A DNA stretch of 64,000 bases from Clostridia bacterium (GCA_017514685.1 JAFWJN010000050.1:9836-73835); one strand, 5' to 3'. Shown: positions 4,249 to 63,784, counted from the stretch's first letter. Program-made: numbers and translations. The notes: generated from the sequence alone by a model not told the origin.

Positions 4249-4290
4249 TGTATACGTATCGGTATATGCATTGGAAAGGCAGGAAGCAAG

Positions 4291-33395: not shown

Positions 33396-33512
33396 CAGAT
33401 CTGATTGCAACAAAGATGTAATTATTTTTTGAATAACGCTAGAAAGCACTTTTCCAACCGGGAAAAATGTGGTATTCATACAATGAGATTATATCAAAAA
33501 GGAGCGGGAACA

Positions 33513-35516
33513 ATGAAAAAAACAATCGCATTGCTGATAGCGGCTTTAATGCTGGTCATGCTGCCTGCGGTTCCGAGTGCCGAAGAGAACGGCACTACGG
33601 TGCGTGTTCTGCTCGAAACACAGGGAGAAGAAACTCTTACAATCACAGTCAAAGGGACCTACTCCGTGGGGGACACATCTTTCACGGATGGAACCGTCAC
33701 AGCATCGGTCAATAACGGAACGATCACATTGAAGCATTCCGAAAAGGGAATGCTGGTATCGACAACCGGTACAGCGCGGATTGTCAGGGCAGAGGCGGAT
33801 AAGGATGAAGCAAACCTGACTCTGTTCAACAAGGGAAGGAAAGCGACTCTGACTTATCTGGGGGACCTGGTGTTCTGTTATGAAGACAGCGTCATGAAGG
33901 TCATCAATTATGTCGGAATGCGGGAGTACTTATACGGCGTGGTCTCCGGCGAAGTGACAGACAGTTCAAACGAGCAGGTTCTGAAAACAGAAGCAATCTG
34001 TGCAAAAGGTTTTGCCCTGGCGGAAATTTCTGCGCGCAGTAAATTTTCTTTCGATGTATATGATTCAACAACGTCACAGTTATATTATGGGTATAAGGAT
34101 TCTGATAAGAACGTAATCAAGGCGGTGGATGAGGTCTGGCAGAATACTCTTCTGTACAACGGAAAACCTTTAAAGACCTATTACTGCACCGCTAACGGAG
34201 GGCAGGTCATTACCCCGAAGATCCACTGGGGCGGAAGCGATAATGACGGAGCATATTTTTACGGATATGATCCATTTGATCTTGAGGGTTCAAAAGCAAA
34301 TGCGGTTTTAACGGTGAACGGAGCATCTCCAGAATCGCTGCCTGATAAGGTTTACAGCTATTTTCTGACGCTTGCAGCAGAATCACTGGGTGAGGAAGTT
34401 GAGAGAATCGAGGCGATTGTTTCGCTGTATGGTGTTTATGACCCGGATAATCCAAACGGAACTAGCAGATATCCGAAAGATCTTGCTCCCCATGCAAAGA
34501 GTTATATCACCATGAATGTGAAAACGAAGGCAGGAGAATACAAACAGGCAAAGGCGTCATTTACTCTCAGCAATCTGAAAAGCAGTGCGGGTATCACGAC
34601 CTCCGGGACGGTGCTGTTTAGTGTCAGGACAAAAATACAGGAATGGGTAATTGCATTTGGTGAGAAAAAAGGCCATCAGGTCGGTCTTTCTCACCGGGGT
34701 GCAGGCGTCATGGCGAAAAAAGGGTATTCATATGTTGATATTCTGAAATTCTATTATCGCGGAGCAGATTTATACGACGCAGATGGAAAACTGATTCCTT
34801 CATCGGCAGATTTCCATTTTGAGTACACAGGAAGTGACCCTGCGGAAACTCCAACCCCGAGCATAGAACCAAGCGCGACTCCTGAACCAAGCGCAACTCC
34901 GGAAGCAAGTGATACACCGGCGCCCAGCGAAACTCCCGAGCCGAGTGAGTCGCCGGAACCAAGCGCAACTCCCGAACCGAGCGAAACTCCCGAGCCGAGT
35001 GAGTCACCGGAACCAAGCGAAACTCCAGAACCGAGCGAAACTCCCGAACCGAGCGATACACCGGCGCCCAGCGAAACTCCAGAGCCGAGCGAGACTCCGG
35101 AGTCAAGTGATACACCGGCGCCTAGCGAAACTCCCGAACCAAGTGCAACACCGGAGCCAAGTGATACACCAGAGCCGAGCGATACACCGGAGCCAAGTGA
35201 TACACCGGAACCGAGTGAATCGCCAAAGCCGAGCGAAACTCCCGAACCAAGTGAGTCTCCGGAGCCAAGTGAATCGCCGGAACCAAGCACTTCTCCGGAT
35301 CCAAGCGAACCTCCTGCATTGCTGCCAGGAGATGTAGACGGCGAAAACGGAATTACGAAAGCAGATGCACTCATGGTGATTCGCTATTGTGTCGGACTTG
35401 AAACTTTGACAGAAGAGCAGAAGACAAGAGCTGATATCAATAAAGATGGAAAAGTGGATCAGCTGGACGCGGCGGCGATTTTAAGAATGATTACGGTAAA
35501 ACCGCAATGGGTGTAA
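33513..35516 (+). CDS. SpoIID/LytB-domain protein with PEPSET linker and C-terminal type I dockerin
   Basis: Signal peptide MKKTIALLIAALMLVMLPAVPSA. SpoIID-like core (YLYGVVSGEV...LKTEAICAKGFAL...YYCTANGGQ...GHQVGLSHRGA). About 150-aa P/E/S/T repeat. C-terminal GDVDGENGITKADALMVIRY...ADINKDGKVDQLDAAAILRMI forms duplicated Ca-binding dockerin segments. Confidence 0.8.
   Translation: MKKTIALLIAALMLVMLPAVPSAEENGTTVRVLLETQGEETLTITVKGTYSVGDTSFTDGTVTASVNNGTITLKHSEKGMLVSTTGTARIVRAEADKDEANLTLFNKGRKATLTYLGDLVFCYEDSVMKVINYVGMREYLYGVVSGEVTDSSNEQVLKTEAICAKGFALAEISARSKFSFDVYDSTTSQLYYGYKDSDKNVIKAVDEVWQNTLLYNGKPLKTYYCTANGGQVITPKIHWGGSDNDGAYFYGYDPFDLEGSKANAVLTVNGASPESLPDKVYSYFLTLAAESLGEEVERIEAIVSLYGVYDPDNPNGTSRYPKDLAPHAKSYITMNVKTKAGEYKQAKASFTLSNLKSSAGITTSGTVLFSVRTKIQEWVIAFGEKKGHQVGLSHRGAGVMAKKGYSYVDILKFYYRGADLYDADGKLIPSSADFHFEYTGSDPAETPTPSIEPSATPEPSATPEASDTPAPSETPEPSESPEPSATPEPSETPEPSESPEPSETPEPSETPEPSDTPAPSETPEPSETPESSDTPAPSETPEPSATPEPSDTPEPSDTPEPSDTPEPSESPKPSETPEPSESPEPSESPEPSTSPDPSEPPALLPGDVDGENGITKADALMVIRYCVGLETLTEEQKTRADINKDGKVDQLDAAAILRMITVKPQWV
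34840..35315 (+). repeat. imperfect tandem 18-nt repeats (CCGGAACCGAGCGAAACT-like) encoding (PEPSET)n
   Basis: At least 20 consecutive PEPS(E/D/A)(T/S) units. Several frames on both strands are open across it, which is a low-complexity artefact in the ORF track. Confidence 0.9.
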
Positions 35517-37141: not shown

Positions 37142-39553
37142 TCAAAGATCCCTGTAGCCGGTCACAACGTCATCATCAAGGACAACCGGAACAAGAAGTT
37201 CTCCTTTACCTGCCTTTGGCTGAATATAGATTTGTTCTGTATTGACGGTTGTTTTTGTTCCATGCCGCTGTTCAAGAATCAGATCATACGGTTCCGTAAC
37301 GACGCCGGCAAAGGCAACAGAGGTTCCGTTGGAACCATTCTTTTTAAAATCGAATGTTTTCAGGCCTTTTCCGTTTCGGCCTTGGACTTCGTAGTCAAAC
37401 AGAAAACTGCGTTTGCCGAATCCGCGGTCTGAAACGATAATCAGCTCGCCTTCATCACCGATTTGATCGGCAAAGAAGACCTTATCCTTCGGTTCCAGCT
37501 TAATGGCTCCGACACCGGAACCGGTTCGGCCTGTTTTCGGTACCGAGTCCGCTGCAAAGCGGATGCACATACCGGACTTTGTGATGATCAGAATATCCTG
37601 CTCTGTTGCTTTCCAGACTCGTACCAGAGTATCTTTCTCTTTGAGACCGATGGCCGGGGTCCGTTTTGCCCGTACCAGGAAATCTTCGGCAGATGTACGT
37701 TTGATCATTCCGCCGGCGGTGGCAAGCAGATACTCTCCATCGGATGATTCCGGAATCATACTGATAACAGATTCGCCTTTTTCCAACTCCAGAAGAGATA
37801 CAAGGTTGACGGCGCGCTGCGTCGGCCTGGTTTCCGGAATGTCGCTGACCTTCAGAAGCAGAAGAGCTCCTTTATCCGTGAATAGCCGCAGATTCTCATT
37901 GCTCTTGCAGGCAACAGAAAGAGCGGGTTTGTCGGCTTTGATCTGTGCGATATTGAACAGACGCGTCGGAATCTTGCGGACTTTTTGATCAGCCAGAAGC
38001 GTGATGGTCACATCTTCAACAATTTCTTCCTCTTTTAAATCTTCCGCAGGAAGTTCATCCCCGGAGATTACTTCGGTCCGCCGCTTGCCGTCAAAAGTCT
38101 TACGCACTTCCAAAAGTTCTTTTTTGATCAGATTCGCAAGTTTTTTTTCAGAAGCAAGAATCGCTTCAAGTTCAGCAATCAGCTTCTTTGTGTCTTTGTA
38201 TTCTTTCTCAATAGAAAGAAGTTCGAGATTTGTCAGCTTCTGCAATCTCAGGTCAAGGATTGCCTGCGCCTGAATCTCTGTCAGGCTGAAAGTAGCCATC
38301 AATCGTTCACGGGCTTCTTTGGGAGATTTCGAGGAACGGATCAGTTTAATAACACGGTCCAGATTGTTGACCGCAATCATGAGACCTTCCAGAATATGGC
38401 AGCGCTTTTTTGCGATTTCCAGCTCGGTCTTTGTCCTTCTCGTTGTAACTTCTCTCTGATGGCGGATATAGTGCCCGAGGATCTGTTTGAGATTCAGCTG
38501 CTGGGGTTTGCCGTTTGCGATCGCAACGTAGTTTGCGCCAAACGTGCACTGGAGATCGGAATGTTTAAACAGAAGCTGAAGAATTTTCTCCGGATCGCCG
38601 TCTTTTTTGACTTCAATAACCGCCCGGATTCCGGTACGGTCGGATTCATCGCGGATGTCGGCAATGGAGGAAAACAGAGATTTTTTCTCCTGTGTCAGCT
38701 GGAGTATTTTTTCGAGACAGGCAGCTTTGTTGATCGTGAAAGGAAATTCATCGATGACAATACGGACCTTGCCGTTCTTCATATCCTCGAAGTGCGTTTT
38801 TGCCCGCATGGTCAGTTTTCCGCGACCGGTCTCATATGATCTTGCAATCTCTTCAGAATCAAGGAGATATCCCCCGGTCGGGAAATCCGGCGCAGGGAGG
38901 ATCTTCATCAGTTCCGGAATCGTGATCTTTGGGTTGTCGATCATTGCGATGACCGCGTCAATCGTCTCCACCGGGTTGTGCGGTGGAATGTTGGTTGCGA
39001 GGCCGACTGCGATACCGCTGGCTCCGTTGACCAGAAGATTCGGGAAACGTCCCGGAAGGATTTCCGGTTCTTTTGTGGAGTCATCAAAGTTCCAGGTGAA
39101 AGGAACGGTATCCTTGTCGATATCCTTCAGAAGAAGCATGGCGGCTTCGGTCATACGGGCTTCGGTATAACGCATGGCGGCAGCAGAATCTCCGTCGACA
39201 GAGCCGAAATTACCATGCCCGTCAACCAGGCAGACGCCCATGTTGAAAGGCTGCGCCATACGGACGAGAGCATCATAAACGGAGGAATCACCGTGCGGAT
39301 GGTATTTACCAAGACAGTCACCGACAATACGTGCGCACTTGCGGTGCGGTTTGTCGGGCGTATTCCCAAGCTCCAGCATGGTATAGAGAATTCTCCGCTG
39401 TACAGGTTTTAATCCGTCCTCAACACGGGGAAGTGCGCGTTCCAGAATGACATGCTCGGCGTATGGCATCATGGAATTGTGCATCACTTCATCCATGCTG
39501 ATATGCAGAATGGTCTCCTGCGGAGGAGGTGTGGTTGTCTTTTTTGTAGCCAT
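37142..39553 (-). CDS. parC: type IIA DNA topoisomerase subunit A (ParC-like; GyrA-box absent)
   Basis: Contains DGLKPVQRRILY, YHPHGD and the catalytic Tyr in AAMRYTE. No QRRGGKG GyrA-box was seen at the start of the C-terminal beta-pinwheel. Not adjacent to dnaA/dnaN/recF. Confidence 0.6.
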   Translation of the reverse strand: MATKKTTTPPPQETILHISMDEVMHNSMMPYAEHVILERALPRVEDGLKPVQRRILYTMLELGNTPDKPHRKCARIVGDCLGKYHPHGDSSVYDALVRMAQPFNMGVCLVDGHGNFGSVDGDSAAAMRYTEARMTEAAMLLLKDIDKDTVPFTWNFDDSTKEPEILPGRFPNLLVNGASGIAVGLATNIPPHNPVETIDAVIAMIDNPKITIPELMKILPAPDFPTGGYLLDSEEIARSYETGRGKLTMRAKTHFEDMKNGKVRIVIDEFPFTINKAACLEKILQLTQEKKSLFSSIADIRDESDRTGIRAVIEVKKDGDPEKILQLLFKHSDLQCTFGANYVAIANGKPQQLNLKQILGHYIRHQREVTTRRTKTELEIAKKRCHILEGLMIAVNNLDRVIKLIRSSKSPKEARERLMATFSLTEIQAQAILDLRLQKLTNLELLSIEKEYKDTKKLIAELEAILASEKKLANLIKKELLEVRKTFDGKRRTEVISGDELPAEDLKEEEIVEDVTITLLADQKVRKIPTRLFNIAQIKADKPALSVACKSNENLRLFTDKGALLLLKVSDIPETRPTQRAVNLVSLLELEKGESVISMIPESSDGEYLLATAGGMIKRTSAEDFLVRAKRTPAIGLKEKDTLVRVWKATEQDILIITKSGMCIRFAADSVPKTGRTGSGVGAIKLEPKDKVFFADQIGDEGELIIVSDRGFGKRSFLFDYEVQGRNGKGLKTFDFKKNGSNGTSVAFAGVVTEPYDLILEQRHGTKTTVNTEQIYIQPKAGKGELLVPVVLDDDVVTGYRDL

Positions 39554-39557: not shown

Positions 39558-41519
39558 TTATTCCTTTATTTTCTCGAAAACAGCGCTGGATCGGTTGAAA
39601 TCAGCATATTCGAAGATATATTCTTTACGGGACTGGACACGGTCGCCCATCAGGACGGTTACAAGATGCTCAACTTCCGCTGCATCTTCAATCGTAACGC
39701 AGGTCAGTTTGCGCCCCTGTGGATTCATGGTCGTTTCCCAAAGCTGTTCAGGGTTCATTTCCCCAAGACCCTTATAGCGCTGAAGGGTATAGTTTTTACC
39801 GTTGACCTGCCGCATGGCAGCTTTTAAAGCCGCATCATCATAACAATAGACGGGAGGCTGATTCGGTTTTTGGACACGGTAAAGGGGAGCCATCCCGATA
39901 TATACATGTCCTTCTGTAATCAATGGACGCATATACCGGTAAAAGAAGGTCAGAAGGATAGCACGGATATGAGCACCGTCCTGGTCAGCATCTGACAGGA
40001 TGATGATCTTATTGTATTTTAAGGCATCAATATTGAAATCGTCGCCGATTCCGGTCCCGAGCGCGGTGATGATAGAGCGGAACTCATCATTTTGCAGAAC
40101 CTGCTCAAGCCGTTTTTTTTCGACATTTAACGGCTTTCCGCGGAGCGGGAGAATCGCCTGAAACTTACGGTCTCTTCCCTGCTTAGCGCTTCCGCCTGCG
40201 GAATCACCTTCCACAATGAACAATTCGTTCTGCGAATAATCGCGGCCGGTACAGCTGGAAAGTTTTCCAACCAAAGGAGCGTTTTCAAGCTTGTTTTTCT
40301 CACGCGCGGTTTCTTTGGCTTTGCGGGCGGCGTTTCTGGCTTTTGAAGCTTTGACGGCTTTATCCGCAATCAGGTTCGCCGCAGAAGCGTTTTTCAGATT
40401 TTCCAGCCAGGCGGTAAGCTGCTGAGTGACGACGGTTTCTACCGCAGGCCTGGCTTCGGTGTTGCCGAGTTTCGTTTTCGTCTGCCCTTCAAACTGAATA
40501 TTCCGCATCTTCAGCGAGAGGACGGCGGTCATTCCTTCCCGGAAATCCTCCCCGGCCAGAGCGGGATCTTTGTCTTTAAGTGCTCCGACTTTCCGGCAGT
40601 AATCATTCATGACTTTTGTCAGGGCTGCCTTGAAACCGGTTTCATGCGTTCCGCCTTCCGTTGTCGGAATATTGTTGACATAAGAAGCGATCATTTCAGA
40701 GTATCCGTCGTTGTGCAAAATAGCGACTTCGACTTTGATCCCATTATATTCACCTTCAAAATGAATCGGAACTTCGTACAAAGAAGTCTTGTCTTCCTGG
40801 ATATATCGGGCGAAATCGCTTAAGCCGCCGGTATAGCAGAACTCGTTGTGCTTGTTTTTTCCCCATTCCCGGTTGTCATCCAGCGTGAATTTGACGCCGC
40901 GGTTTAAGTAGGCCAGTTCACGAAGACGCTTCATAATCACGGCATACTGCATGTCGATCGTTTCGAAAACCCGGTCATCCGGAAGAAATGTAACGACTGT
41001 TCCCTGTTTACGGGTACGGCCTGTTTCAGTCAGGGGATACTTCGGCTTACCGGAAACGATCTTTCCGTTCTCATTTTCTTCGCTGGAAAATTCGATTTTG
41101 TAAGCATGATTTTCGTGAAACACTTCAACTGTTACCCAGCGGGAAAGCGCATTCACAACAGAAGCGCCGACACCGTGAAGACCGCCGGAATAACCGTAAG
41201 CATCATTTCCGAATTTACCGCCGGCGTGCAACTGCGTGAAGACAACTTCGACGCCGGAAACGCCCAGTTTTTCATGAATTCCTGTCGGGATTCCGCGCCC
41301 GTTGTCCACGACTGTTACACTTTTGTCGCGGTTCAGGGTCACATTGATTTCATTAGCATAGCCGTTCGCAGCTTCGTCGACCGCGTTGTCCACGATCTCC
41401 CAGAGCATGTGATGTAGTCCGACCGGTCCTGTCGATCCGATATACATGCCGGGGCGCATACGGACCGCGTCAAGCCCTTCCATCACCGTAATGTTGCGGA
41501 CGGAGTATTCTTCAGCCAT
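39558..41519 (-). CDS. parE: type IIA DNA topoisomerase subunit B (ParE-like)
   Basis: GHKL ATPase motifs (EIVDNAVDE, GGLHGVGASVVNALS) and Toprim motifs EGDSAGGSA, PLRGKPLNV, DADQDGAHI. The ATG at 41519 is preceded by GGAGGTAAC. Confidence 0.6.
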   Translation of the reverse strand: MAEEYSVRNITVMEGLDAVRMRPGMYIGSTGPVGLHHMLWEIVDNAVDEAANGYANEINVTLNRDKSVTVVDNGRGIPTGIHEKLGVSGVEVVFTQLHAGGKFGNDAYGYSGGLHGVGASVVNALSRWVTVEVFHENHAYKIEFSSEENENGKIVSGKPKYPLTETGRTRKQGTVVTFLPDDRVFETIDMQYAVIMKRLRELAYLNRGVKFTLDDNREWGKNKHNEFCYTGGLSDFARYIQEDKTSLYEVPIHFEGEYNGIKVEVAILHNDGYSEMIASYVNNIPTTEGGTHETGFKAALTKVMNDYCRKVGALKDKDPALAGEDFREGMTAVLSLKMRNIQFEGQTKTKLGNTEARPAVETVVTQQLTAWLENLKNASAANLIADKAVKASKARNAARKAKETAREKNKLENAPLVGKLSSCTGRDYSQNELFIVEGDSAGGSAKQGRDRKFQAILPLRGKPLNVEKKRLEQVLQNDEFRSIITALGTGIGDDFNIDALKYNKIIILSDADQDGAHIRAILLTFFYRYMRPLITEGHVYIGMAPLYRVQKPNQPPVYCYDDAALKAAMRQVNGKNYTLQRYKGLGEMNPEQLWETTMNPQGRKLTCVTIEDAAEVEHLVTVLMGDRVQSRKEYIFEYADFNRSSAVFEKIKE

Positions 41520-41757
41520 TGTTACCTCCATACGATGGGATTGCAAAGAACGCAAAACCCATTCATTAGCAGTTCATTATACCACAATATCTTGTGGATT
41601 ATGGAAAAATCAAAAACAGTTTTCCGTTTATTCATAAATCAGGAAATACGTTTTCCGACAAATGTGCAGTTACCAAAGGCGAATCTTTATCTTTCCGGGA
41701 TAACCGGCTGAGAAAACCAAGGTTAATAGAAATGTTGCACATCGTTTGCATTTGATG

Positions 41758-41786
41758 GATGACAAAGGTTTGTTTTGGGTGTATAA
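41758..41786 (+). promoter_or_regulatory. candidate promoter of the dcw operon
   Basis: -35 ATGACA, 17-nt spacer, -10 TATAAT (41781-86), 54 nt upstream of the rsmH ATG. Confidence 0.5.
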
Positions 41787-42811: not shown

Positions 42812-43246
42812 ATGGAAATCAAATTCAACAGCGGAAAAAACGAAAGCTTCGGACCCGCAACCCGTACCTATAATCCGGCTTCCAGAAAAAACCGGAGATA
42901 TGGGGAAGGGGATTTTCCTGTTCCCGTACGGATGGAGTCGGACAGGGATGAGGCGGTTTCTTTTCTGCGCTCTGAAATCCGCTTTTCAGACTTTTCAAAG
43001 ATTTTGATCCTGATTTCCGTCTTCATGGTTGCGCTGACAGCGTTGATTTCTTTGTTTGGAGCAGCGGAATATGCGGAAATTACATCTCAGATCAGCACAA
43101 TCGAATCCGATATCGAGAACTATCAGCAGCAGATTTCTCAGGTTCGGAAAACACAGAGCTCGATGAATGACTATCGGTCCATCAATGATGCGTGCCTGGA
43201 CCGGGGCATGCAGATGATTTGGGAACCGGACAGCTCAAATCCGTAA
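42812..43246 (+). CDS. ftsL: FtsL-like cell division protein
   Basis: Single TM segment (ILILISVFMVALTALISLFGAA) followed by a coiled coil. Sits between rsmH and the PBP gene. Confidence 0.65.
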   Translation: MEIKFNSGKNESFGPATRTYNPASRKNRRYGEGDFPVPVRMESDRDEAVSFLRSEIRFSDFSKILILISVFMVALTALISLFGAAEYAEITSQISTIESDIENYQQQISQVRKTQSSMNDYRSINDACLDRGMQMIWEPDSSNP

Positions 43247-43259: not shown

Positions 43260-45503
43260 ATGGGAGAAATCAGACGTACGGCAAAGCGAGGCAGCTGGCT
43301 GAGCCGCAGACAATTTCACAGAAGAAAGATTTCAGCATCCAGAGCGAGGCTTCTGTTTGTTTTGGCAGCAGCAATGCTCGCCTTTTTAATGCTGATCATT
43401 CAGCTTTTTTCTGTTTCGATCTGGAACGGAAAAAACTGGGCGGATAAAGCGATGCGTCAATGGTCCCGCACCACTTATCTGAAGGCGGACCGTGGCAAGA
43501 TCACGGATTCGGACGGAACGGAACTTGCTTCTTCTTATACAACTTATCAGGTTTGCGTGAACCCGCAGAACATTCAGGCGGATGACCGTGAACGAATAGC
43601 TTATATTCTGTCAACTTATCTCCAGATGGACTATGATACCGTCCTTGCAAAAATGAGCAAGACCCGTATCAAAAGAGGAACGGAAAACAGCGACGAACCG
43701 GAGTATGTCCTGCTTTCCCAGGTCAAGATCAAGGATCAGGTGGATAAGGAAATCATCTCCCAGCTGAACGCTATGCAGCTTGGAACGGGCGTCAGTTATT
43801 ATGCCGATGTCAAGAGGGATTATCCGGAAAGCGGTTATTACGGGCAGCTGTTAGGCTTTACAAATGTTGACGGCGACGGGCAGACAGGCGTTGAGCTGAC
43901 CTGCAATTCCTATTTATCCGGTAAAGACGGATATCTGAAAACGGACACAGACCGGGACAACAACCCCGTTCCGGGAGGCGACGAGGAATATGTCATGCCT
44001 ATCGCAGGGGGAAATGTCCGGCTGACGACAAACACAGGGCTGCAGGCAATTCTGGAAAACGCCCTGGAAGAAGCATATACGGTCAATAATGCCGCTACGG
44101 CTTATGGAATCCTGATGAATCCGCAGACCGGAGAGGTTTATGCGGAAGGTTCCTACCCGACGTTTGAATCAGCCAATCCGCCCAGAAGTGACGCAAAAGT
44201 TCTGCTGGAACTGTCCAAGAACAGGATTGTAACGGATACTTATGAGCCGGGAACAACGTTCGGCGTCATCACCATTGCCTCTGCGCTTGAGTCCGGTGCA
44301 ATTTCCATGAATACCATGTTCAACTGCTCAGGATCGCTTCTGGTGAAAGGGGAACGGATCAGATGCATCAATACAAAAGGGCACAAGACGGAATCGCTGC
44401 CGGAAGCACTGACCAACAACTGCAAAACTGCCTTTATGTCGATGGCGCTCCGCATGGGACTGGACTCGTTTTATGACCGGATATACTCGTTTGGCTTCAA
44501 TGATACCACAAGCAGCGGAATCATGGGAGAAACCAGCGGAAAGGTTACACATAAAAAATATGTCAGAGATGCCGATCTGGCAGAAATCGGCTATGGACAG
44601 AATATCACCTGTACAGGCATGCAGCTGACAATGGCTGTTACTGCGGCAATCAACGGCGGGGAACTGATCAAGCCGTATGTTGTGAGTGATATCACGGATA
44701 ATGACGGAATGGTCATTCTTCAGAACGGAAAAACTCTGATCCGCAGAGTCATCTCTCCGGCGACATCGGAACTGGTCAGAACACTGATGCAGTACGTTGT
44801 TGATAACGGGGACGGAAGAGGCGCGCAGGTATACGGCTATACTGTTGGAGGAAAGACCGGGGCTTCTCAGAAATATGACGAGGAAGGAAAACCCACCGGA
44901 AAATGGATCGCATCCTTCATCGGGTTTGCGCCGGTTAATAATCCGCAGTTCATCTGTCTGATTGTGGTGGATGAACCGCAGGTGCCTTCGTCCTATGTCA
45001 ACTATGTTGCTGCGCCGTATGTGCAGGAAGTATTAGCTTCGTCACTCTCCCTGAAAGGAGTTCCTTCCGACAGGAGCAATGTGTCGGAAACGGTTCCGAA
45101 CGTAGTCGGAATGACTGTCGACGAAGCTGTAAAAGCACTTAAAGGAAGAGGATTCAATGCGATTTATCTGGAGGGTGAAGCAAATTCGCTGGTGGTAGGC
45201 CAGGCACCGCGCAACAATATGACGGTTGTTCACGGAAGCAATGTGATTTTATATTCGAACGGCTATACTTTCTATAACAGTGAAGTCACGGAAGAGACGG
45301 AAATGGTGAAAGTGCCGGACGTATATGACAAGGGTAAGGTGGACAGGATCATGGCAAGAGATACTCTGGAAGCGGCAGGACTTGTCATGGACTATGATCC
45401 TGAAAACTGTGTCGGATATGTTGTCGGGCAGTCTTATCCCGAAGGAACACTGGTTCCGGTTGGAACGGTTGTATTCGTACAGTTTGCACCTGAGGAAAAG
45501 TAA
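43260..45503 (+). CDS. class B penicillin-binding protein (FtsI/SpoVD/PBP2B type, two PASTA domains) with degenerate SxxK and SxN motifs
   Basis: N-terminal TM segment, dimerisation domain and transpeptidase fold. The SxxK position reads YEPGTTFGVITIASALE. The SxN position reads LTNNCKTAF. KTG is retained (GGKTGAS). C-terminal PASTA repeats (VPNVVGMTVDEAVKALKGRGF...). Confidence 0.85.
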   Translation: MGEIRRTAKRGSWLSRRQFHRRKISASRARLLFVLAAAMLAFLMLIIQLFSVSIWNGKNWADKAMRQWSRTTYLKADRGKITDSDGTELASSYTTYQVCVNPQNIQADDRERIAYILSTYLQMDYDTVLAKMSKTRIKRGTENSDEPEYVLLSQVKIKDQVDKEIISQLNAMQLGTGVSYYADVKRDYPESGYYGQLLGFTNVDGDGQTGVELTCNSYLSGKDGYLKTDTDRDNNPVPGGDEEYVMPIAGGNVRLTTNTGLQAILENALEEAYTVNNAATAYGILMNPQTGEVYAEGSYPTFESANPPRSDAKVLLELSKNRIVTDTYEPGTTFGVITIASALESGAISMNTMFNCSGSLLVKGERIRCINTKGHKTESLPEALTNNCKTAFMSMALRMGLDSFYDRIYSFGFNDTTSSGIMGETSGKVTHKKYVRDADLAEIGYGQNITCTGMQLTMAVTAAINGGELIKPYVVSDITDNDGMVILQNGKTLIRRVISPATSELVRTLMQYVVDNGDGRGAQVYGYTVGGKTGASQKYDEEGKPTGKWIASFIGFAPVNNPQFICLIVVDEPQVPSSYVNYVAAPYVQEVLASSLSLKGVPSDRSNVSETVPNVVGMTVDEAVKALKGRGFNAIYLEGEANSLVVGQAPRNNMTVVHGSNVILYSNGYTFYNSEVTEETEMVKVPDVYDKGKVDRIMARDTLEAAGLVMDYDPENCVGYVVGQSYPEGTLVPVGTVVFVQFAPEEK

Positions 45504-45529: not shown

Positions 45530-46963
45530 ATGAAATTATCACTGATTGCCCGGGAACTCGGGATCGCGTTCTCCGAGGAGGATGCTGAAATCAGTTCTAT
45601 CACATATGATTCGCGGAAAGTTGAGAGCGGGAGCCTTTTCTGCTGCCTGGTCGGACTGGTATCTGACGGGCACACTTTTGCGGGGCAGGCAGTAGACAAG
45701 GGGGCGGCGGCTCTGATTGTTGAACACAGACTTCCGTATAATATTCCGCAGCTGGTTGTCGAAGACGGCAGGAAAGCAATGGCACTTGCGGCCGCCTGCT
45801 TTTACGGGCATCCGGAAAAGGAAATGCTTATGCTGGGAGTAACCGGAACAAACGGGAAAACCAGCACTACCTATATGGTGAAATCCATTGCCGAGCAGGC
45901 GGGGAAAAAAGTCGGACTGATCGGAACCATTCAGAATATGATCGGAGACGAAGTGATCGAAACAGGCCGCACGACTCCGGAATCAGCAGATTTGTTTGCG
46001 CTTCTCAGGCAGATGGCGGATGAAAAGGTAGATCTGGTCATTATGGAAGTTTCCAGTCATGCCCTTGTTCAGGACCGCGTTTACGGGATTCAGTATCAGG
46101 TTGCGCTTTTTACCAATCTGACGCAGGATCATTTGGACTATCATAAGACATTCGACAATTATCTGAGTGCAAAAAAGCTTCTTTTTTCTCAATGCGATAT
46201 CGCGGTGATCAATCACGATGACCCGCACGCGGAAAAAATCATGGAAGGTCTGGAGTGCCCGATTTATACAACGGGAATTCATACCCCTGCGAGCTATAAT
46301 GCTTCCGAAATCGATATACAGACCTCCGGTGTGCGGTTTTTGCTGCGCACACCGAAAGGGGAAAGTCTGATCCGGCTGCACATTTCAGGACTGTTCTCCA
46401 TTTATAACGCAATGGGTGCGGCGGCCATGATGCAGCAGGCAGGTTTTTCTCTCGAACAAATCGTGTCCGGTCTGGAAGCCTTGAAGGGCGTTGCCGGAAG
46501 GCTTCAGGCGGTCAATACAAACGGGAAGCCTTTTTCGGTCTATGTCGACTATGCCCATACTCCGGACGCACTGGAGAATGTGCTGACGACCGTTAGAGCC
46601 TTTGCGAAAGCGAGGGTTCTCAGCCTGTTCGGATGCGGGGGAGACAGAGACCGAGCAAAGCGTCCCCTAATGGGTGAAATCGGAGGAAGACATTCCGATT
46701 ATGTGATCATAACAAGCGATAATCCCCGCTCTGAAGAGCCGGAGTCAATTGTCAAGGCAATCGAAGAGGGAGTGAAAAAAAGCGGGGCTCCGTATACGGT
46801 GATCGTAAATCGCAGGGAAGCGATCGCTTATGCGCTGTCAATACTGGAAGAGAATGATATCCTGGTCATTGCCGGAAAAGGGCATGAGAATTATCAGGAG
46901 ATCAACGGCGTCAAACATCATTTTGACGACAAGGAAATCGTGGAGGAGCTGCTCAGGCAGTAG
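45530..46963 (+). CDS. murE: UDP-N-acetylmuramoyl-L-alanyl-D-glutamate--2,6-diaminopimelate ligase
   Basis: GVTGTNGKTST P-loop and a DNPR motif (ITSDNPRSE), which indicates meso-DAP specificity. Confidence 0.93.
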   Translation: MKLSLIARELGIAFSEEDAEISSITYDSRKVESGSLFCCLVGLVSDGHTFAGQAVDKGAAALIVEHRLPYNIPQLVVEDGRKAMALAAACFYGHPEKEMLMLGVTGTNGKTSTTYMVKSIAEQAGKKVGLIGTIQNMIGDEVIETGRTTPESADLFALLRQMADEKVDLVIMEVSSHALVQDRVYGIQYQVALFTNLTQDHLDYHKTFDNYLSAKKLLFSQCDIAVINHDDPHAEKIMEGLECPIYTTGIHTPASYNASEIDIQTSGVRFLLRTPKGESLIRLHISGLFSIYNAMGAAAMMQQAGFSLEQIVSGLEALKGVAGRLQAVNTNGKPFSVYVDYAHTPDALENVLTTVRAFAKARVLSLFGCGGDRDRAKRPLMGEIGGRHSDYVIITSDNPRSEEPESIVKAIEEGVKKSGAPYTVIVNRREAIAYALSILEENDILVIAGKGHENYQEINGVKHHFDDKEIVEELLRQ

Positions 46964-46968: not shown

Positions 46969-47979
46969 ATGTATTCTGTGATTAATCACTCGCTGCTGGC
47001 ACTTCTGACAGCTTTTGCAATTGCTGCGGCTCTCGGCCTTATGACCATTCCGCTTCTGCAGAAACTGACGCAGGGACAGACAGCTTCGAGCGAGGGACCG
47101 AAACCACATACAGGCAAAAAGGGAACGTCCACGATCGGCGGGATCATTATGATGTCCGCTATCATTCTGTCCACGCTTTTCTGGGCAAGAGGGAGCTATA
47201 CCTTTGTGCTGACGGCGCTTTTGATGAGCATGCTGTTCGGACTGGTGGGCTTTGTTGATGATTTTATTAAGGTAAACAGAAACCAAAGCAAAGGACTGAA
47301 CGCATGGCAGAAAATTGTGATCCATTCCATTCTCGCGCTCGGATTCGCTTTCTGGTTCTATCGGATGGAAGATGTCGGACCGTTTGTCTGGAACGGCAGC
47401 CTGAACATCGGCGGCTTATATATTCCGTTCGCTGTACTGGTAATTGTTGCAACCGTCAACTCCGTAAACCTGACGGATGGAATCGACGGGCTCGCCGGAT
47501 CAGTGACATCAGTCTATACCCTGTTCATGGGGCTTCTGCTATGCATTACGGTTGTTGCCGCTCCGGCAACCGCCGATCCGCAGGAATTGCTGGACCGCAG
47601 CGCGCTTGGAGCGTTCTCGATGGCGGTATCAGGAGCATGTATCGGGTTCCTGCTGTTTAATATGCATCCTTCCAGGGTTTCCATGGGGGACACCGGATCG
47701 CATATAATCGGAGGCGCAATTGCCGCTATTGCGCTGATGTCTGGAACGGCTCTGCTGCTTCCGTTGATGTGTGTTTGCTTTGCGGCATCCAGCGTATCTG
47801 TTATTCTGCAGATAGCGACCAATCACCTGCGGAACGGGAAACGGTTGTTCCGCATGGCGCCGATTTATCATCATTTTCAAATGAAAGGAGTGCCGGAAGC
47901 GAAGATCATTTCGATCTACAGCATCATTACGCTGGTCAGCAGCGCTGCCGCACTTCTGATATACTGGGTTTTACAATAG
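46969..47979 (+). CDS. mraY: phospho-N-acetylmuramoyl-pentapeptide transferase
   Basis: Polytopic protein with KKGTSTIGG, FVDDFIKV, NSVNLTDGIDGLA and MGDTGS motifs. Confidence 0.95.
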   Translation: MYSVINHSLLALLTAFAIAAALGLMTIPLLQKLTQGQTASSEGPKPHTGKKGTSTIGGIIMMSAIILSTLFWARGSYTFVLTALLMSMLFGLVGFVDDFIKVNRNQSKGLNAWQKIVIHSILALGFAFWFYRMEDVGPFVWNGSLNIGGLYIPFAVLVIVATVNSVNLTDGIDGLAGSVTSVYTLFMGLLLCITVVAAPATADPQELLDRSALGAFSMAVSGACIGFLLFNMHPSRVSMGDTGSHIIGGAIAAIALMSGTALLLPLMCVCFAASSVSVILQIATNHLRNGKRLFRMAPIYHHFQMKGVPEAKIISIYSIITLVSSAAALLIYWVLQ

Positions 47980-47987
47980 GAGGAACA

Positions 47988-49337
47988 ATGGAAAGACAGA
48001 AAACAGCTCTGATCGTCGGAATGGCGAAAAGCGGAATTGCCGCCGCGCGGCTTTTGTATCAGGATAATTACCGGATCATTATCAACGATATGAAACCGGA
48101 AATAAAAGGTCTTTTCGACCAACTGTCCGGAATCGCATATGAAGTCAAACTCGGCGCGAATCCAATGGATCTTCTCGACAATGTGGATCTGGTAGTCCCG
48201 AGTCCTGCTATTCCAATGACGAGAAACTTCATCGTGGAAGCTAAACGGCGCGGAATCGAGGTAATTTCTGAGATCGAGCTGGGGTACCGTTATTCCAAGG
48301 CGGATTTTGTCTGCATCACGGGAACGAACGGTAAAACAACCTGTACAGCTCTGACCGGCGAACTGTTCAAGGCGGCGGGTAGGACCACATATGTTCTCGG
48401 CAATATCGGAATTGCAATTTCAGCTCATGCATTGGAGACCCGTAAGGGGGATGTTGTTGTTGCCGAAACAGCGGCTTTGCAGCTGGAAGGAAACAGCAGA
48501 TTTCATGCTATCGCTGCAGGAGTATGCAACATTACGCCGGATCATCTTGATCATTTCGGGACGATGGAAAATTATATTGCTGCAAAAGCTAAAATTCTGG
48601 ACAATCAGACTGAAAATGATTATGCAGTCCTGAATTATGATGATCCTACTGTCCGGGATTTTGCAAAACTGACTCCGGCCCATGTTCTGTATTTTTCCAG
48701 AAAAGAAGAAGTGGAACAGGGAATGTTCCTTCGTGGAAACCGGCTCGTTTACCGGATCGGAGAAACAGAAGGCGAATTGATGAATGCGGAAGACATTCGC
48801 ATTCCGGGCGCACATAATCTGGAGAATGCTATGCTGTGCGCATTGCTGGCACTGTCGCAGGGAATTGCACCGGAGACGATTGTCAAGGTGATGAAATCAT
48901 TCCCCGGTGTTGAGCACAGAATCGAATATGTCTGCACCCGCAGCGGGGTCGATTATATTAATGATTCAAAAGGAACAAATCCGGCATCTACCATAAGGGC
49001 TATTCAGGCGATGAAAAAGCCAACGGTTCTGATTCTGGGAGGATATGACAAGAAAATCCCCTTCGATGAATTGTTTGAAGCTTTTACGCCGATTATTAAG
49101 GCGTGCGTTGTGATTGGAGATACACAGAAGACAATTCTTGAGACGGCGGAAAAATACGGTTATGCCGATTTATGCAAAACAGCAGATTCTTTTGGAGCCG
49201 CAGTGGATTTAGCGCATGATCTTGCGAAAAGCGGGGATGCGGTTCTGCTTTCACCGGCCTGTGCGAGCTGGGACATGTTTGACAATTATGAGCAAAGGGG
49301 CAGGGTGTTCAAGGAAATCGCAAGAGAATACCATTGA
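47988..49337 (+). CDS. murD: UDP-N-acetylmuramoylalanine--D-glutamate ligase
   Basis: N-terminus VGMAKSGIAAARLL, GTNGKTT P-loop, and NDSKGTN. The ATG at 47988 is preceded by AGGAGGAAC. Confidence 0.93.
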   Translation: MERQKTALIVGMAKSGIAAARLLYQDNYRIIINDMKPEIKGLFDQLSGIAYEVKLGANPMDLLDNVDLVVPSPAIPMTRNFIVEAKRRGIEVISEIELGYRYSKADFVCITGTNGKTTCTALTGELFKAAGRTTYVLGNIGIAISAHALETRKGDVVVAETAALQLEGNSRFHAIAAGVCNITPDHLDHFGTMENYIAAKAKILDNQTENDYAVLNYDDPTVRDFAKLTPAHVLYFSRKEEVEQGMFLRGNRLVYRIGETEGELMNAEDIRIPGAHNLENAMLCALLALSQGIAPETIVKVMKSFPGVEHRIEYVCTRSGVDYINDSKGTNPASTIRAIQAMKKPTVLILGGYDKKIPFDELFEAFTPIIKACVVIGDTQKTILETAEKYGYADLCKTADSFGAAVDLAHDLAKSGDAVLLSPACASWDMFDNYEQRGRVFKEIAREYH

Positions 49338-49359: not shown

Positions 49360-50508
49360 ATGGAAGCACTGCAGGAAAAACAAAACAGACAGGTATTCTT
49401 CGGAAGGGCACAGGGCAGGATGGATTTTTCCATTCTGCTGGTTGTGACGATTTTGTGCGCCTTCGGACTTGTCATGATTTTTTCCGCAAGCTACTATTAT
49501 GCCCAGCATTATTCGGGCGCGAACAATGACGGTTTCTATTACCTGAAACGGCAGGCACTTTATTTGGCAATCGGGTATCCGGTTATGCTGGTTCTGTCCA
49601 TGCTGAATTACCGGGTCATTGAAAGAGCAAACTATCTGGCAATGGGGGTTTCCATTTTGCTTCTGATAGCAGTGCTCTTGTGGGGAAGAGACTTAAACGG
49701 AGGAAAACGGTGGCTGTATATCGGTCCGGTTTCTGTTCAGCCGTCTGAAGTCGCGAAGTTCGGCCTGATGATCTATATGTGCGCATTCATGTCCAGACAT
49801 CGCGGAGAAATGGCATCGGTTCAAAAAGGAATGGTCCCGATGCTGTTTGCAATCGTCTTGATTGCAGGATTGATTATGCTGCAGCCGAACATGTCGATGG
49901 CTGTTATCGTCGCGTTTATCGGTGTTGTTCTTCTCTTTTTAGGCGGATGCGACTTAAGACCGCTGATCGTTGTAGGTGTTATCGGCATTATCGGCGTGGT
50001 TGGACTGGCGTTTGCACAGCCGTACAGAATCGACCGCATGACATCCTTCCGGAATCCTGAACTGGATCCTCAGGGAACCGGCTATCAGCTTCTGCAATCG
50101 TTCTATGCGATCGGATCGGGAGGATGGTTTGGAAAAGGACTTGGAAACAGTTATCAGAAATTGCTGTATATGACATACGGCGAATCTGACTTTATCTTTG
50201 CAATTCTTTGCGAGGAGCTAGGATTTGTCGGAGGAACGATTATCATCCTGCTGTATGCATATATTGTTTTTCGCGGGATGCAGATTTCAATGAGATGCAG
50301 AAACAGGTTCGGAAGCCTTCTTAGCGCGGGTATTTCCATCGTTTTCGGCTTCCAGGTATTTGTCAACATCGCTGTTGTTACCGGACTGATGCCGACGACA
50401 GGGCAGGCGCTTCCGTTTATTTCGGCAGGAGGAACGCAGCTTCTGGTGTTCCTTGCCGCTATGGGTGTATTGCTGAACATTTCCAGGGATGTAAATCCGA
50501 ACAATTGA
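49360..50508 (+). CDS. ftsW: FtsW/SpoVE-type SEDS peptidoglycan glycosyltransferase
   Basis: Ten-TM SEDS pattern with VQPSEVAKF, ESDFIFA and LPFISAGGT. Confidence 0.9.
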   Translation: MEALQEKQNRQVFFGRAQGRMDFSILLVVTILCAFGLVMIFSASYYYAQHYSGANNDGFYYLKRQALYLAIGYPVMLVLSMLNYRVIERANYLAMGVSILLLIAVLLWGRDLNGGKRWLYIGPVSVQPSEVAKFGLMIYMCAFMSRHRGEMASVQKGMVPMLFAIVLIAGLIMLQPNMSMAVIVAFIGVVLLFLGGCDLRPLIVVGVIGIIGVVGLAFAQPYRIDRMTSFRNPELDPQGTGYQLLQSFYAIGSGGWFGKGLGNSYQKLLYMTYGESDFIFAILCEELGFVGGTIIILLYAYIVFRGMQISMRCRNRFGSLLSAGISIVFGFQVFVNIAVVTGLMPTTGQALPFISAGGTQLLVFLAAMGVLLNISRDVNPNN

Positions 50509-50546
50509 CAGACTGACAAGAGATACAGGAAAGGAAGAGCAGAATC

Positions 50547-51905
50547 TTGGCTAAGAAGCATGACGATGAGGACCGCGTAATCATCCGGTTTGACAATGAG
50601 GAGGGTGAAGAGGAAGAAGCACCCTTTAATTTGTTTGACGATGAGGATGAAACGTCACAGTCAAAGGATCCAAACCGGTATGCCGATGACTCGGAAGAGA
50701 TAACCGCTGCCGGAGATAAACCGGTGGATGAAGCAGAACAGATGAGGCTTTCTTTCGATCGATACGGCCGCAGGCTTCCTCACAAAAAGAAAAAATCGCA
50801 ATACGGAAAACGAAAAAACGCTCCGAAAGCTTCAACACGAATCATTCAGAATGATACAATTGCTCGAAGGGAATATGAAGCGGCGCAGGAACGTTCCCGC
50901 CAGAGAGCACAAAGACGCAAAGCAAAAGAGCAGAGTGAAAAAAAAAGAAAGGAGCGCGAACGCAGGGCGCGCAGAATTTCAATATTGAAGACTGCCGGGA
51001 TGGCAACAGGGGTGATTCTGATTCTGCTCGTCATGACCTGGTATACGACCAGGATTCGGACGATTAATGTGAATCATGTTCCATCCGGGTACACGGCTGA
51101 CGAGATTGTAAAGCGTTCCGGATTAAAAACAGGAGTCTGCATCGCATTCCAGAATCTGGATGACGCAAAGAAACGAATTGAAGAAGATGCTTATCTGACT
51201 GCAACGGTCAAGTATTCCTTCCCGTCAACAGTTACGATTAATATTGCACAGAGAACCGCTGCTGCGTGTGTTCGCTGGGGACCTCAGAATGAGTACCTGG
51301 CAATCATAGATTCTTCCGCGGTTGTTCTGAATGCAGAATCGGATACAACGGAAGGACTTATTGTCATAGACGGACTTGCGGTTACAACCGCACAAAACGG
51401 AAGAGCACTCGGTGATTCGACCGACATGCAGGTAGCTACCCTGATTCGGCTTTTGACAAAATTGGAGGAGCTGGACCTGATGAATCGATCGCCGCAGATC
51501 TCGCGAATCGATATGAACGAGATGATGAGCATTTCCATGAAAACAAGCGGAAGCAATTATAGCATAGAGGTCGGGGATTCTTCCAATCTGGACACAAAAC
51601 TGTTGCTTTTGCAAAAACATTGGTCGGAAATAATGAATACTGCAGCGCAGTATATAACCAAAGGATATAGTACGGCGACCATTTATCTTTATACAAAGGG
51701 CGGAGTATCTGTATCTCCGTATGAGCCCGGTTATAACTATGCAATGGAACAGATCGGGAATTATACGCTTCCAACAAACGGACCCGATACGACACCGAAC
51801 CCAATCGGTACAACAGAACCGACGGACCCTGACGCGCCGCCACCTGAAACGCCTACACCTACTCCCACCGTTATGCCTCATCAGGGAGGGTCCTTTACAG
51901 GTTGA
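50547..51905 (+). CDS. ftsQ: FtsQ/DivIB-type cell division protein with a long charged N-terminal extension
   Basis: About 145 aa of D/E/K/R-rich sequence, then a TM segment (GMATGVILILLVMTWY). POTRA-like IRTINVNHVPSGYTADEIVKRSGLKTG. P/T-rich C-terminus. TTG start. Confidence 0.7.
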   Translation: MAKKHDDEDRVIIRFDNEEGEEEEAPFNLFDDEDETSQSKDPNRYADDSEEITAAGDKPVDEAEQMRLSFDRYGRRLPHKKKKSQYGKRKNAPKASTRIIQNDTIARREYEAAQERSRQRAQRRKAKEQSEKKRKERERRARRISILKTAGMATGVILILLVMTWYTTRIRTINVNHVPSGYTADEIVKRSGLKTGVCIAFQNLDDAKKRIEEDAYLTATVKYSFPSTVTINIAQRTAAACVRWGPQNEYLAIIDSSAVVLNAESDTTEGLIVIDGLAVTTAQNGRALGDSTDMQVATLIRLLTKLEELDLMNRSPQISRIDMNEMMSISMKTSGSNYSIEVGDSSNLDTKLLLLQKHWSEIMNTAAQYITKGYSTATIYLYTKGGVSVSPYEPGYNYAMEQIGNYTLPTNGPDTTPNPIGTTEPTDPDAPPPETPTPTPTVMPHQGGSFTG

Positions 51906-60260: not shown

Positions 60261-60341
60261 CAGATGGAAATGTTTATAATGATGACGCAAATCTGTTACA
60301 TTTCCCTGTTATAATGATAATCGGATCATGAGGTGAAAAAT

Positions 60342-62665: not shown

Positions 62666-63784
62666 TTAAAAAGTATAAACTCTTTTGACTCGAGGGAGAA
62701 GAGCAGTCGTAAATGCACAGGCTTCATTGGCGCCGCAGGCTGCTGCCTGCTTTTGAGCGCTGAGAAAAATGCCTGACTCGTCATATCCGAAGAAGGTTAT
62801 CAGATCTCCCGGTGTACATGGTAGGTCACCGATATCGACAAGCGTATGATCCATAAAGCTATATAAAAGAGAGCAGGTCTGTCCATGAAGAAGAACCGGA
62901 AGATGCTGTCTGACGGCGTTCAGATCGATTCCATCTCCGTAACCGATTCCGATGGAAGCGATGCGGGTATCTTTTAAAAGGGTCAAGCCGTCTCCATATC
63001 CGATTTTTTCCCCTGCTTTGCGATGCCAGATACCGGTTACAACGGTCTGCAAAGTGGCAGCTTCGAGAATGTTCCCGTTTGGCCGAACAGGATTGCCCCA
63101 CATCAGACCTCTTCCGACCCGGATCGCGTCCAGAGCATATTCCGGATACAACTCGCTTGCTGCAGAGTCACAGATGTGGCGGAGAGGAATCGAAAACCCA
63201 TGCGATTCCAAAGCGTCTGATAAAGCCATATAGCTTTGAAATTGGGCTTTACATCTGTCCGCATCGAAAGGATCTGCAAAATGGGAATAGGTTCCTTTCA
63301 GAGAGCAGAATGGGCTGCAAGAGTTAAGAGCGGAAATAAGAGGATTTATTTCATCGGGGCTTATTCCGAAGCGATGAAGACCGGTGTCAAATTTAATCTG
63401 CACAGAGACTTTTTTTCCAAGCGCTTCGGCTGCACGTGACATAAGGGAGAGATCGGAAAGACTTCCGACGGTCAAGGTGAGATCGGAAAGAATTGCCGGT
63501 TTATACTGAAAGGGAAGAGCCGGTCCGAGAATAAAAATGGGAAGAGAAATACCGCTGTTCCGAAGCTGAAGACCTTCCTCTATATATGCAACAGCAAAGC
63601 CTGCGATTCGGTCCGAAGAACATAATGCTTTTGCGACAGGAACCAGACCAAGACCGTAAGCGTCAGCTTTTAAAACCGGAATCAATTTTGCCCCACATGG
63701 GAGATGAGAGATAATGCCGGCAGTGTTTTTCTGAATCGCAGAGAGCGAGACAATGAGTCTTGAAAAGGAAATGGAATCTTCCAT
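62666..63784 (-). CDS. alr: alanine racemase
   Basis: PLP-lysine motif PVLKADAYGLG, plus SHFADP, IGYGDG and C-terminal FMDHTLVD. 372 aa, with RBS GAGAGG. Confidence 0.85.
   Translation of the reverse strand: MEDSISFSRLIVSLSAIQKNTAGIISHLPCGAKLIPVLKADAYGLGLVPVAKALCSSDRIAGFAVAYIEEGLQLRNSGISLPIFILGPALPFQYKPAILSDLTLTVGSLSDLSLMSRAAEALGKKVSVQIKFDTGLHRFGISPDEINPLISALNSCSPFCSLKGTYSHFADPFDADRCKAQFQSYMALSDALESHGFSIPLRHICDSAASELYPEYALDAIRVGRGLMWGNPVRPNGNILEAATLQTVVTGIWHRKAGEKIGYGDGLTLLKDTRIASIGIGYGDGIDLNAVRQHLPVLLHGQTCSLLYSFMDHTLVDIGDLPCTPGDLITFFGYDESGIFLSAQKQAAACGANEACAFTTALLPRVKRVYTF

Follow-up and report, generated by a model that had tools for sequence, protein, structure and literature searches.

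The penicillin-binding protein of class B (bPBP) that is encoded in the division and cell wall (dcw) gene cluster of a Clostridia bacterium has lost most of the residues that define a transpeptidase active site. The gene lies at 43260-45503 on the + strand of a 64,000-nucleotide stretch of DNA (GCA_017514685.1, JAFWJN010000050.1:9836-73835), referred to here as the window. We found that the motif loss is ancestral to two present-day lineages and that the protein has been under strong purifying selection since; the gene encodes a pseudoenzyme and is not a pseudogene. The reading we favour, to which we give a probability of about 0.7, is that of a natural pseudo-transpeptidase retained as a non-catalytic partner of FtsW and the divisome. 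An earlier note made from the sequence of the window had proposed a natural pseudo-transpeptidase, a proposal supported by the shared loss, the low ratio of non-synonymous to synonymous substitution (dN/dS), the domain-biased changes and the recurrence of such losses described below.

The open reading frame (ORF) runs through 747 codons with no internal stop and no frameshift, and its 747-aa product was assigned to the SpoVD/PBP2B/FtsI type, with a degenerate active site, on the basis of the ORF itself, Pfam, the Clostridioides difficile SpoVD structure 7RCZ and AlphaFold2/Foldseek. Its parts, all on the + strand, are those of a class B PBP (anchor, PF03717 and PF00905). The N-terminal membrane anchor (residues ~26-55, 43335-43424) is modelled as a single long helix, 26-55, over the hydrophobic stretch LLFVLAAAMLAFLMLIIQLF. 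It is followed by the pedestal or dimerisation domain (PF03717, residues 75-237, 43482-43970; Pfam E = 2.5e-17), which in bPBPs generally is the part that contacts the SEDS (shape, elongation, division, sporulation) polymerase. The transpeptidase-fold domain (PF00905, residues 284-592, 44109-45035; 189 bits, E 1.2e-55) is catalytically degenerate and full length, with a match that spans profile positions 4-298 of 299. Two C-terminal PASTA domains (PF03793, two stretches; 45090-45494) were placed at residues ~611-666 and ~680-745 with the help of the model secondary structure, the limits of the second being approximate.

Among the three catalytic motifs of the class, SxxK, SxN and KTG, only KTG is present. 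The DNA at 44241-44264 reads TAT GAG CCG GGA ACA ACG TTC GGC, that is Y328-E-P-G-T332-T-F-G335, in which the SxxK motif (44253-44264) has Thr for the Ser nucleophile and Gly for the Lys general base. At 44418-44426, AAC TGC AAA encodes N387-C388-K389 at the SxN position, where Ser is replaced by Asn and Asn by Lys. The third motif, K532-T-G (44853-44864, of which 44853-44861 is AAG ACC GGG), is kept, and the conserved Thr after it has become A535. The nucleophile, the general base and both defining residues of SxN are thus all replaced, as expected of a pseudoenzyme.

Several lines of evidence agree on which residues occupy the catalytic positions. HMMER alignment with 7RCZ (E = 1.3e-87) set YEPGTTFG opposite YEPGSTFK, NNCK opposite NSCN and GGKTGAS opposite GGKTGTA. 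An AlphaFold2 model built with 30 homologues had a mean pLDDT (predicted local distance difference test) of 77.5, with 80-95 across most of the transpeptidase domain, and placed T332 at the N-terminus of helix 331-345. In Foldseek comparisons, the model matched 7RCZ with a TM-score (template modelling score) of 0.83-0.88 and Pseudomonas aeruginosa PBP3 with ~0.8-0.87 (target-normalised). A mis-assigned active site was rejected, since the HMMER alignment to the solved structure, Pfam and AlphaFold2/Foldseek concur and there is no other S-x-x-K at the N-terminus of helix 331-345. The earlier note had given the codons and coordinates of TTFG, NCK and KTG, which proved exact on re-reading the DNA and translating the ORF, and had called for alignment to PF00905 and SpoVD, which puts TTFG, NCK and KTGA opposite the catalytic motifs of 7RCZ. 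Its description of an intact fold with two PASTA domains and no frameshifts likewise agrees with the full-length Pfam match and the uninterrupted ORF, and the elongation PBP2 that it used as an internal control (5614-8148) does keep SVFK (456), SCN (522) and KTGT (777) in a motif scan. In family-level models, the protein scored 469.6 bits against the SpoVD equivalog TIGR02214, compared with 483.5 for its closest motif-less relative, P0002, and 554-564 for intact relatives, all below the cutoff of 688 bits; against the FtsI model NF011685, which was built mainly on proteobacterial FtsI, it scored 165.4 bits (cutoff 737 bits).

One feature of the active-site region has been kept. In C. difficile, SpoVD and PBP3 carry a Zn-binding tetrad made up of a pair of Cys, a His and the Cys in the X position of SXN (Sacco et al.; PMC9334274). 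The corresponding residues of the window bPBP, C356 (44325-27), C369 (44364-66), H375 (44382-84) and C388 (44421-23), which span 44325-44423 on the + strand, align with the 7RCZ tetrad and are invariant in our alignment. The protein therefore has the tetrad that marks Zn-binding bPBPs of Firmicutes, a group in which Asp may take the place of the first two Cys, and Zn binding is predicted. Retention of the tetrad would also account for the Cys that persists in the middle of NCK.

We then asked how far the loss extends among relatives, a survey of STFK versus TTFG that the earlier note had recommended. Among the best 120 homologues from a search of 5.8 billion proteins, the loss is confined to two entries that lack both Ser/Lys and Ser/Asn: the window's own cluster, which includes MBR3179587.1 (labelled 'Clostridia bacterium' and 90-100% identical to the window protein), and P0002 (locus L001), which is 90% identical to the window bPBP and reads TSFG/NCK/KTGA. 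S-[TVAI]-F-K, SCN and KTGT were found in 116 of the 120 (54-76% identity), and the two others are P0017 and P0113. Positions 332 and 387 are Ser in every one of the 120 except the window protein and P0002, and Lys335 and Asn389 are likewise conserved apart from these two and one single case each, P0113 (SVFE) and P0017 (SCD). P0113 is a singleton cluster in which Lys is replaced by Glu in an otherwise canonical bPBP, and could reflect either a sequencing error or early degeneration.

Four more contigs, each from a different sample, encode an identical bPBP and differ from the window gene by 6-9 nucleotides, always synonymously, and P0002 is encoded on three contigs at a synonymous divergence (dS) of ~1.5 from the window lineage. 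Both motif-less lineages have ACA and GGC at codons 332 and 335, where relatives have TCN/AGC and AAG, so that K335G (AAG to GGC) amounts to three nucleotide changes. Sequencing or assembly error is an explanation for which we found no evidence and that we regard as having next to no chance of being right, given seven independent motif-less contigs from different samples and assemblers and the three base changes needed for K335G. Conserved synteny with intact relatives led us to reject a paralogue in place of the dcw orthologue.

Selection after the loss was estimated by the Nei-Gojobori method from the window and L001, the P0002 lineage. The bPBP gave a dN/dS of 0.039 at dS ~1.5, where synonymous sites are near saturation and absolute values are therefore rough; the robust part is the comparison with neighbouring genes, which were measured identically and gave 0.034 for murE, 0.041 for ftsQ, 0.063 for ftsW, 0.089 for mraY and 0.021 for murD. 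By domain, the anchor and pedestal (residues 1-280) came to 0.031, the transpeptidase domain to 0.041 and the PASTA region to 0.049. Pairs of intact orthologues gave 0.055-0.18 in the transpeptidase domain; as its own value is no higher than this range, the motif-less bPBP is at least as constrained as the intact ones. A decaying pseudogene was rejected on the grounds of the low dN/dS, the intact ORF in both lineages and the presence of synonymous variants only among strains.

Although overall constraint is strong, its pattern has shifted. We defined conserved sites as those with the same residue in six or more of seven close relatives, and stem changes as substitutions at such sites common to the window and L001. 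The transpeptidase domain carries 40 stem changes in 263 conserved sites (15.2%), compared with 10/216 (4.6%) in the pedestal, 12/378 (3.2%) in murE, 10/411 (2.4%) in murD and 14/320 (4.4%) in ftsW. This excess is significant against the pedestal (p = 1.4e-4, Fisher) and against murE, murD and ftsW combined (36/1109; p = 1.5e-11), while the pedestal is indistinguishable from these housekeeping genes (p = 0.31). If each conserved site changed at 15%, the expectation that all four catalytic residues change would by our own arithmetic be ~5e-4.

The stem changes include the catalytic substitutions S332T, K335G, S387N and N389K, and T535A after KTG. Others are W370I/L, P390T, R442E and F445Y, S448N and S450T, by which the FGQSxS block became YGQNxT; S518D, K520R and N521G; V545P, S546T and L549W in strand beta-4; and V578S, G580V, S581N and T582Y, which turned VxGST into SxVNY. 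From the general properties of the fold, the changed blocks are expected to form the walls of the substrate pocket. Of the 263 formerly conserved transpeptidase sites, 26 have changed on the tip branches, as against 6 of 216 in the pedestal (p = 0.0017), a rate about three times faster.

A sister lineage appears to be caught between the two states. P0017 (L010, 10001-12190; 72% identity) reads TEPGSAFK, SCD and KTGV, and its transpeptidase domain has lineage-specific changes at 59 of 282 conserved sites (21%), compared with 4-6% in its neighbours L015, L016 and L023. Among the best 120 homologues, N448, T450, D518 and S578 are common to P0017, the window and P0002 only, and two of these four shared changes (S448N, S450T, S518D and V578S) need two nucleotide changes each. 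At the same four positions, P0103 has the unusual residues S, A, G and D, which could represent either sequencing error or an early stage of degeneration.

The same lineages lack a murA gene in the dcw cluster. In all 12 intact-bPBP loci that reach far enough, murA (EPSP_synthase family) directly follows the SEDS gene, and it precedes ftsQ where ftsQ is reached (for example L008 17336-18604 and L031 16716-18032; also L025, L027, L029 and L030). It is absent after the SEDS gene in the window (50508-50547), in L001, in L010 and in the four further dead-bPBP loci long enough to show it. Two independent comparisons of sister lineages, one setting the window clade beside L015/L023 and the other P0123 beside P0122, show this contrast, and dcw murA loss may accompany transpeptidase degeneration. 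The shared residues and the absent dcw murA therefore unite the window, L001 and L010 in a clade. Within it, the sequences indicate that degeneration was staged, with relaxation of the transpeptidase domain and loss of dcw murA preceding the loss of the catalytic Ser and Lys. P0017 is possibly a snapshot of a bPBP part-way to a pseudoenzyme, or a transpeptidase of altered specificity.

Motif loss has also occurred elsewhere. An exhaustive phmmer search over 1.84 billion 50%-cluster representatives was carried out and the best 150 were aligned; nine of the other 149 lack the motifs. At the SxxK, SxN and KTG positions, respectively, they read TLFG, GCT and KGG (P0123); SMFE, SCD and KNG (P0126); SSFG, SCN and TTG (P0132); PVFE, ACA and IAG (P0135); SIFN, MCI and LAG (P0175); GIFS, GCI and LYG (P0190); NIAN, GCV and IYS (P0269); KLMG, GCK and MTD (P0208); and TLMH, ECN and VND (P0233). 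The Zn tetrad is retained as CCHC in eight of the nine and is CCYC in P0132, which comes from a 2.38-Mb contig of a Christensenellales metagenome-assembled genome (MAG; GCA_050948665.1); the P0175 cluster is labelled as a Christensenellaceae MAG.

In a neighbour-joining tree the nine are scattered, and the nearest relatives outside each singleton or pair are intact, which argues for ~7-8 independent losses, the window's included. In P0190/P0269 and likewise in P0208/P0233, the two partners share no more than 41% identity, yet both lack the motifs and are still full length with all domains, so the motif-less state can endure over very long times. The five loci of the nine that we retrieved all have the bPBP gene between an FtsL-like gene and murE; a SEDS gene lies downstream in four of the five, and three of the four SEDS proteins exceed the FtsW cutoff.

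A second, word-indexed search seeded with P0208 led to a larger motif-less clade of 28 clusters (P0302-P0335), mutually 70-99% identical, which read S/T-M-F-D, SCN and I/V-T-G-V. Here, both lysines are gone while SCN and CCHC are kept, and the residues that replace them (Asp for the SxxK Lys, Ile/Val for that of KTG) hardly vary over the 28 clusters, whose source labels include Christensenella sp., Firmicutes HGW-9 and Clostridia MAGs. The pedestal of this clade is conserved above the transpeptidase domain (0.91 vs 0.84), the reverse of intact bPBPs in the same alignment (0.52 vs 0.58). Its loci (L033-L053, for example L050 562-6923 and L043 477-6840) are also in the dcw position, and all seven motif-less groups with examined loci have the gene between rsmH/ftsL and murE. 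In the three longest S/T-M-F-D loci murD is the last gene of the cluster, neither a SEDS gene nor ftsQ adjoins it, and opposite-strand isochorismatase, SpoU methylase, GNAT and IF3/MFS genes come next.

The dcw cluster of the window runs rsmH, ftsL-like, bPBP, murE, mraY, murD, ftsW and ftsQ, which places the bPBP where a division bPBP is expected and confirms the earlier observation that it adjoins ftsL upstream of the SEDS gene; the coordinates that follow are all on the + strand. The FtsL-like small membrane protein (42812-43246) had no Pfam match and was recognised as a syntenic ORF present in all relatives, 95% identical between the window and L001. murE (45530-46963), mraY (46969-47979) and murD (47988-49337) were assigned from the Pfam families of identical genes on L004. 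The SEDS glycosyltransferase, the presumed partner of the pseudo-transpeptidase (49360-50508), is of FtsW type: it scored 373.8 bits with the TIGR02614 ftsW model (cutoff 337.5) and 369.9 bits with the spoVE model, below the cutoff of 448.8. Seven of 227 columns invariant among relatives have changed in FtsW, much as in MurE and MurD. Directly after it lies an FtsQ/DivIB-like gene (50547-51905; POTRA_1 and FtsQ_DivIB_C). The elongation-type bPBP (PBP2/MrdA-like, 5614-8148; TIGR03423, 368 bits), with intact SVFK, SCN and KTGT and with mreC (4240-5124; TIGR00219) upstream, is a candidate source of DD-cross-links.

Other observations concern the genes of the cluster and its surroundings. MraY is unusually variable, with 40-66% identity between lineages in which MurD has 89-94% and FtsW 78-93%; only 58 of its columns are invariant among 12 relatives, and its dN/dS is the highest in the cluster. 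A 522-aa ORF starting with GTG (47769-49337) over-extends murD, for which homologous loci call a 449-aa product from 47988. No mraZ was found upstream of rsmH in the window, and the distant relatives L027, L030 and L031 carry one. The cluster begins right after a divergent topoisomerase pair of GyrB/GyrA type (39558-41555 and 37142-39553), with an interval at 41555-41759. Elsewhere, 33405-35516 encodes a 703-aa protein in which a domain of SpoIID/LytB type is joined to a type I dockerin at the C-terminus, an unusual pairing of wall remodelling and cellulosome targeting. A 655-aa protein (60333-62300) consists of repeated peptidoglycan-binding modules (SleB-like N-terminal) and a C-terminal NlpC/P60 endopeptidase, and adjoins an alanine racemase gene (62666-63784). 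An Rfam scan of the window gave no match to RNA elements. A scan of GTDB genomes held no representative of the window's species; its top matches, uncultured Clostridia MAGs from rumen or gut, were 76-77% identical.

From these data we infer that the window bPBP has no DD-transpeptidase activity, that it activates its SEDS partner and that cross-links are supplied by other enzymes. The acylation residues were replaced in the common ancestor of the two lineages while the whole protein was kept. According to this model, the anchor and pedestal would still pair with the adjacent FtsW-type SEDS polymerase and switch it on; the Zn-stabilised transpeptidase-like domain and the PASTA domains would dock into the FtsQ/FtsL divisome and the wall; and cross-links would come from PBP2, which is intact, from a class A PBP or from L,D-transpeptidases. 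A role as scaffold or SEDS activator fits both the sequence evidence and engineered precedents. Division is still supported by catalytically inactivated bPBPs, provided that both they and their SEDS partners are there (PMC12713402; PMC12516126), and the same model has been proposed for Bacillus subtilis PBP2B(S309A), Enterococcus faecalis PbpB and C. difficile SpoVD(S311A) (PMC12713402). As catalysis by C. difficile SpoVD is essential only for cortex synthesis, it is plausible that lineages that make no cortex may shed the chemistry and keep the scaffold.

Several points weigh against this interpretation. The inactivity of the protein is deduced from its motifs, KTG is kept, and since the loss the transpeptidase domain has been constrained much like the pedestal, which a pure scaffold would not obviously need; the roughness of absolute dN/dS values noted above bears on this as well. 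Thr serves as a nucleophile in other enzyme families, and here it occurs together with a Lys at the SxN Asn position. Pairing with a dcw-encoded SEDS protein is not universal for dead bPBPs, because the S/T-M-F-D clade has no adjacent SEDS gene. The intact enzyme that we confirmed is PBP2, within the window, and an alternative septal DD- or LD-transpeptidase is assumed.

The combination of Thr332 and Lys389 raises the question of whether the active site has been rewired, with Thr332 as nucleophile and Lys389, from the SxN Asn position, acting as general base in the space vacated by the change of Lys335 to Gly, perhaps yielding a transpeptidase that is insensitive to beta-lactams. Both lineages are fixed for K335G together with N389K, P0208 has independently arrived at this combination (Gly for the SxxK Lys, GCK for SxN), and the protein has kept KTG, its Zn tetrad and a strongly constrained transpeptidase domain (dN/dS 0.041). 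The side chains of the SxxK Lys and the SxN Asn are in contact in solved PBP structures, and the relocated catalytic lysine of WNK kinases offers a parallel to such a migration. However, the Ser of SxN, the proton shuttle, is gone, the Thr after KTG is Ala, and ~40 formerly conserved transpeptidase residues have been replaced, including the presumed pocket blocks. We know of no Thr nucleophile in any PBP or enzyme of the beta-lactamase fold. Moreover, P0208 has Lys at the nucleophile position, so that the Gly/Lys pair cannot be catalytic there, and other motif-less lineages have lost their residues in quite different ways. We consider a rewired site improbable; if real, it would make the protein a DD-transpeptidase, or an acyl-transferase of a new kind, with inherent insensitivity to beta-lactams. 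The strength of selection on the domain would also be explained if what is preserved, more than SEDS activation alone, is a new, non-covalent role of the transpeptidase-like domain, as a receptor for stem peptides or muropeptides or as a docking site for a regulator or a second PBP. This overlaps with the pseudo-transpeptidase model and is favoured by a domain that is as constrained as the pedestal after the loss, by the 40 stem substitutions being themselves conserved between the two lineages, and by the nearly invariant replacement residues of the S/T-M-F-D clade, which has no adjacent SEDS gene. PBP3 of C. difficile assists SpoVD in a way that does not depend on catalysis, and it binds components of the divisome (PMC12713402). 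On the other hand, the ligand or partner is not identifiable from sequence, the ~3-fold faster tip change at transpeptidase than at pedestal sites looks like partial relaxation, and in the S/T-M-F-D clade it is the pedestal that is more conserved. We regard a new binding role as the basis of selection as rather unlikely.

The window bPBP could instead be a functionless relic on its way to loss, for example a SpoVD left behind after sporulation was lost. Cultured Christensenellaceae are described as non-spore-forming, we recognised no sporulation-specific gene within the 64-kb window, and dcw murA has been lost in the same lineages. Furthermore, dcw-encoded SEDS/bPBP pairs of Firmicutes are often sporulation-specific (PMC10693644). 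A relic is, however, difficult to reconcile with a dN/dS of 0.039 over dS ~1.5, with 747 codons free of stops and frameshifts in either lineage, and with a protein that is identical across strains differing only synonymously. The dead-dead pairs that are still full length at 41% identity and the stably motif-less clade of 28 clusters point the same way, and we consider this explanation very improbable indeed.

Comparison with known systems helps to place the non-catalytic partner that we propose. C. difficile SpoVD (7RCZ) is the best match in both sequence and structure, with the same anchor, pedestal, transpeptidase and PASTA architecture, the same Cys-Cys-His-Cys tetrad and a gene that is likewise flanked by ftsL and murE and has a SEDS gene downstream. 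In contrast to the window protein (TTFG/NCK/KTGA), SpoVD has STFK/SCN/KTGT and is acylated by ampicillin. The window protein resembles an evolved version of the engineered dead bPBPs, PBP2B(S309A), PbpB and SpoVD(S311A), in which the protein is needed and the transpeptidase chemistry is dispensable; these are thought to activate their SEDS partner allosterically while another enzyme cross-links (PMC12713402; PMC12516126). Unlike these single-residue laboratory mutants, it has had 4-5 catalytic and ~40 further sites replaced naturally, and its dead state has been stable over dS ~1.5. Pseudogenised ftsI/mrdA loci (PMC12516126) share the loss of canonical dcw or elongation bPBP function, but are frameshifted or truncated, whereas the ORF of the window is intact and subject to purifying selection. 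The other motif-less dcw bPBPs have the same family, architecture and Zn tetrad, but stem from independent events with different replacements, some without KTG. A non-exhaustive search of the open-access literature found no report of naturally motif-less dcw bPBPs kept by selection, which is weak evidence of novelty.

Textbooks present class B PBPs as the targets of beta-lactams, and their purpose is usually taken to be transpeptidase activity. Engineered mutants in B. subtilis, E. faecalis, Staphylococcus aureus and C. difficile suggested that they also have a non-catalytic job, switching on SEDS proteins in the divisome. The window locus, at least seven independent sister losses and the 28-cluster clade would be nature's version of the dead-bPBP experiment, and would provide a natural comparative data set for mapping the bPBP surfaces that are relevant to the non-catalytic role. 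According to the model, these Clostridia of gut and rumen should rely on other enzymes to cross-link the septum, and it would imply a component of their divisome that is beyond the reach of beta-lactams.

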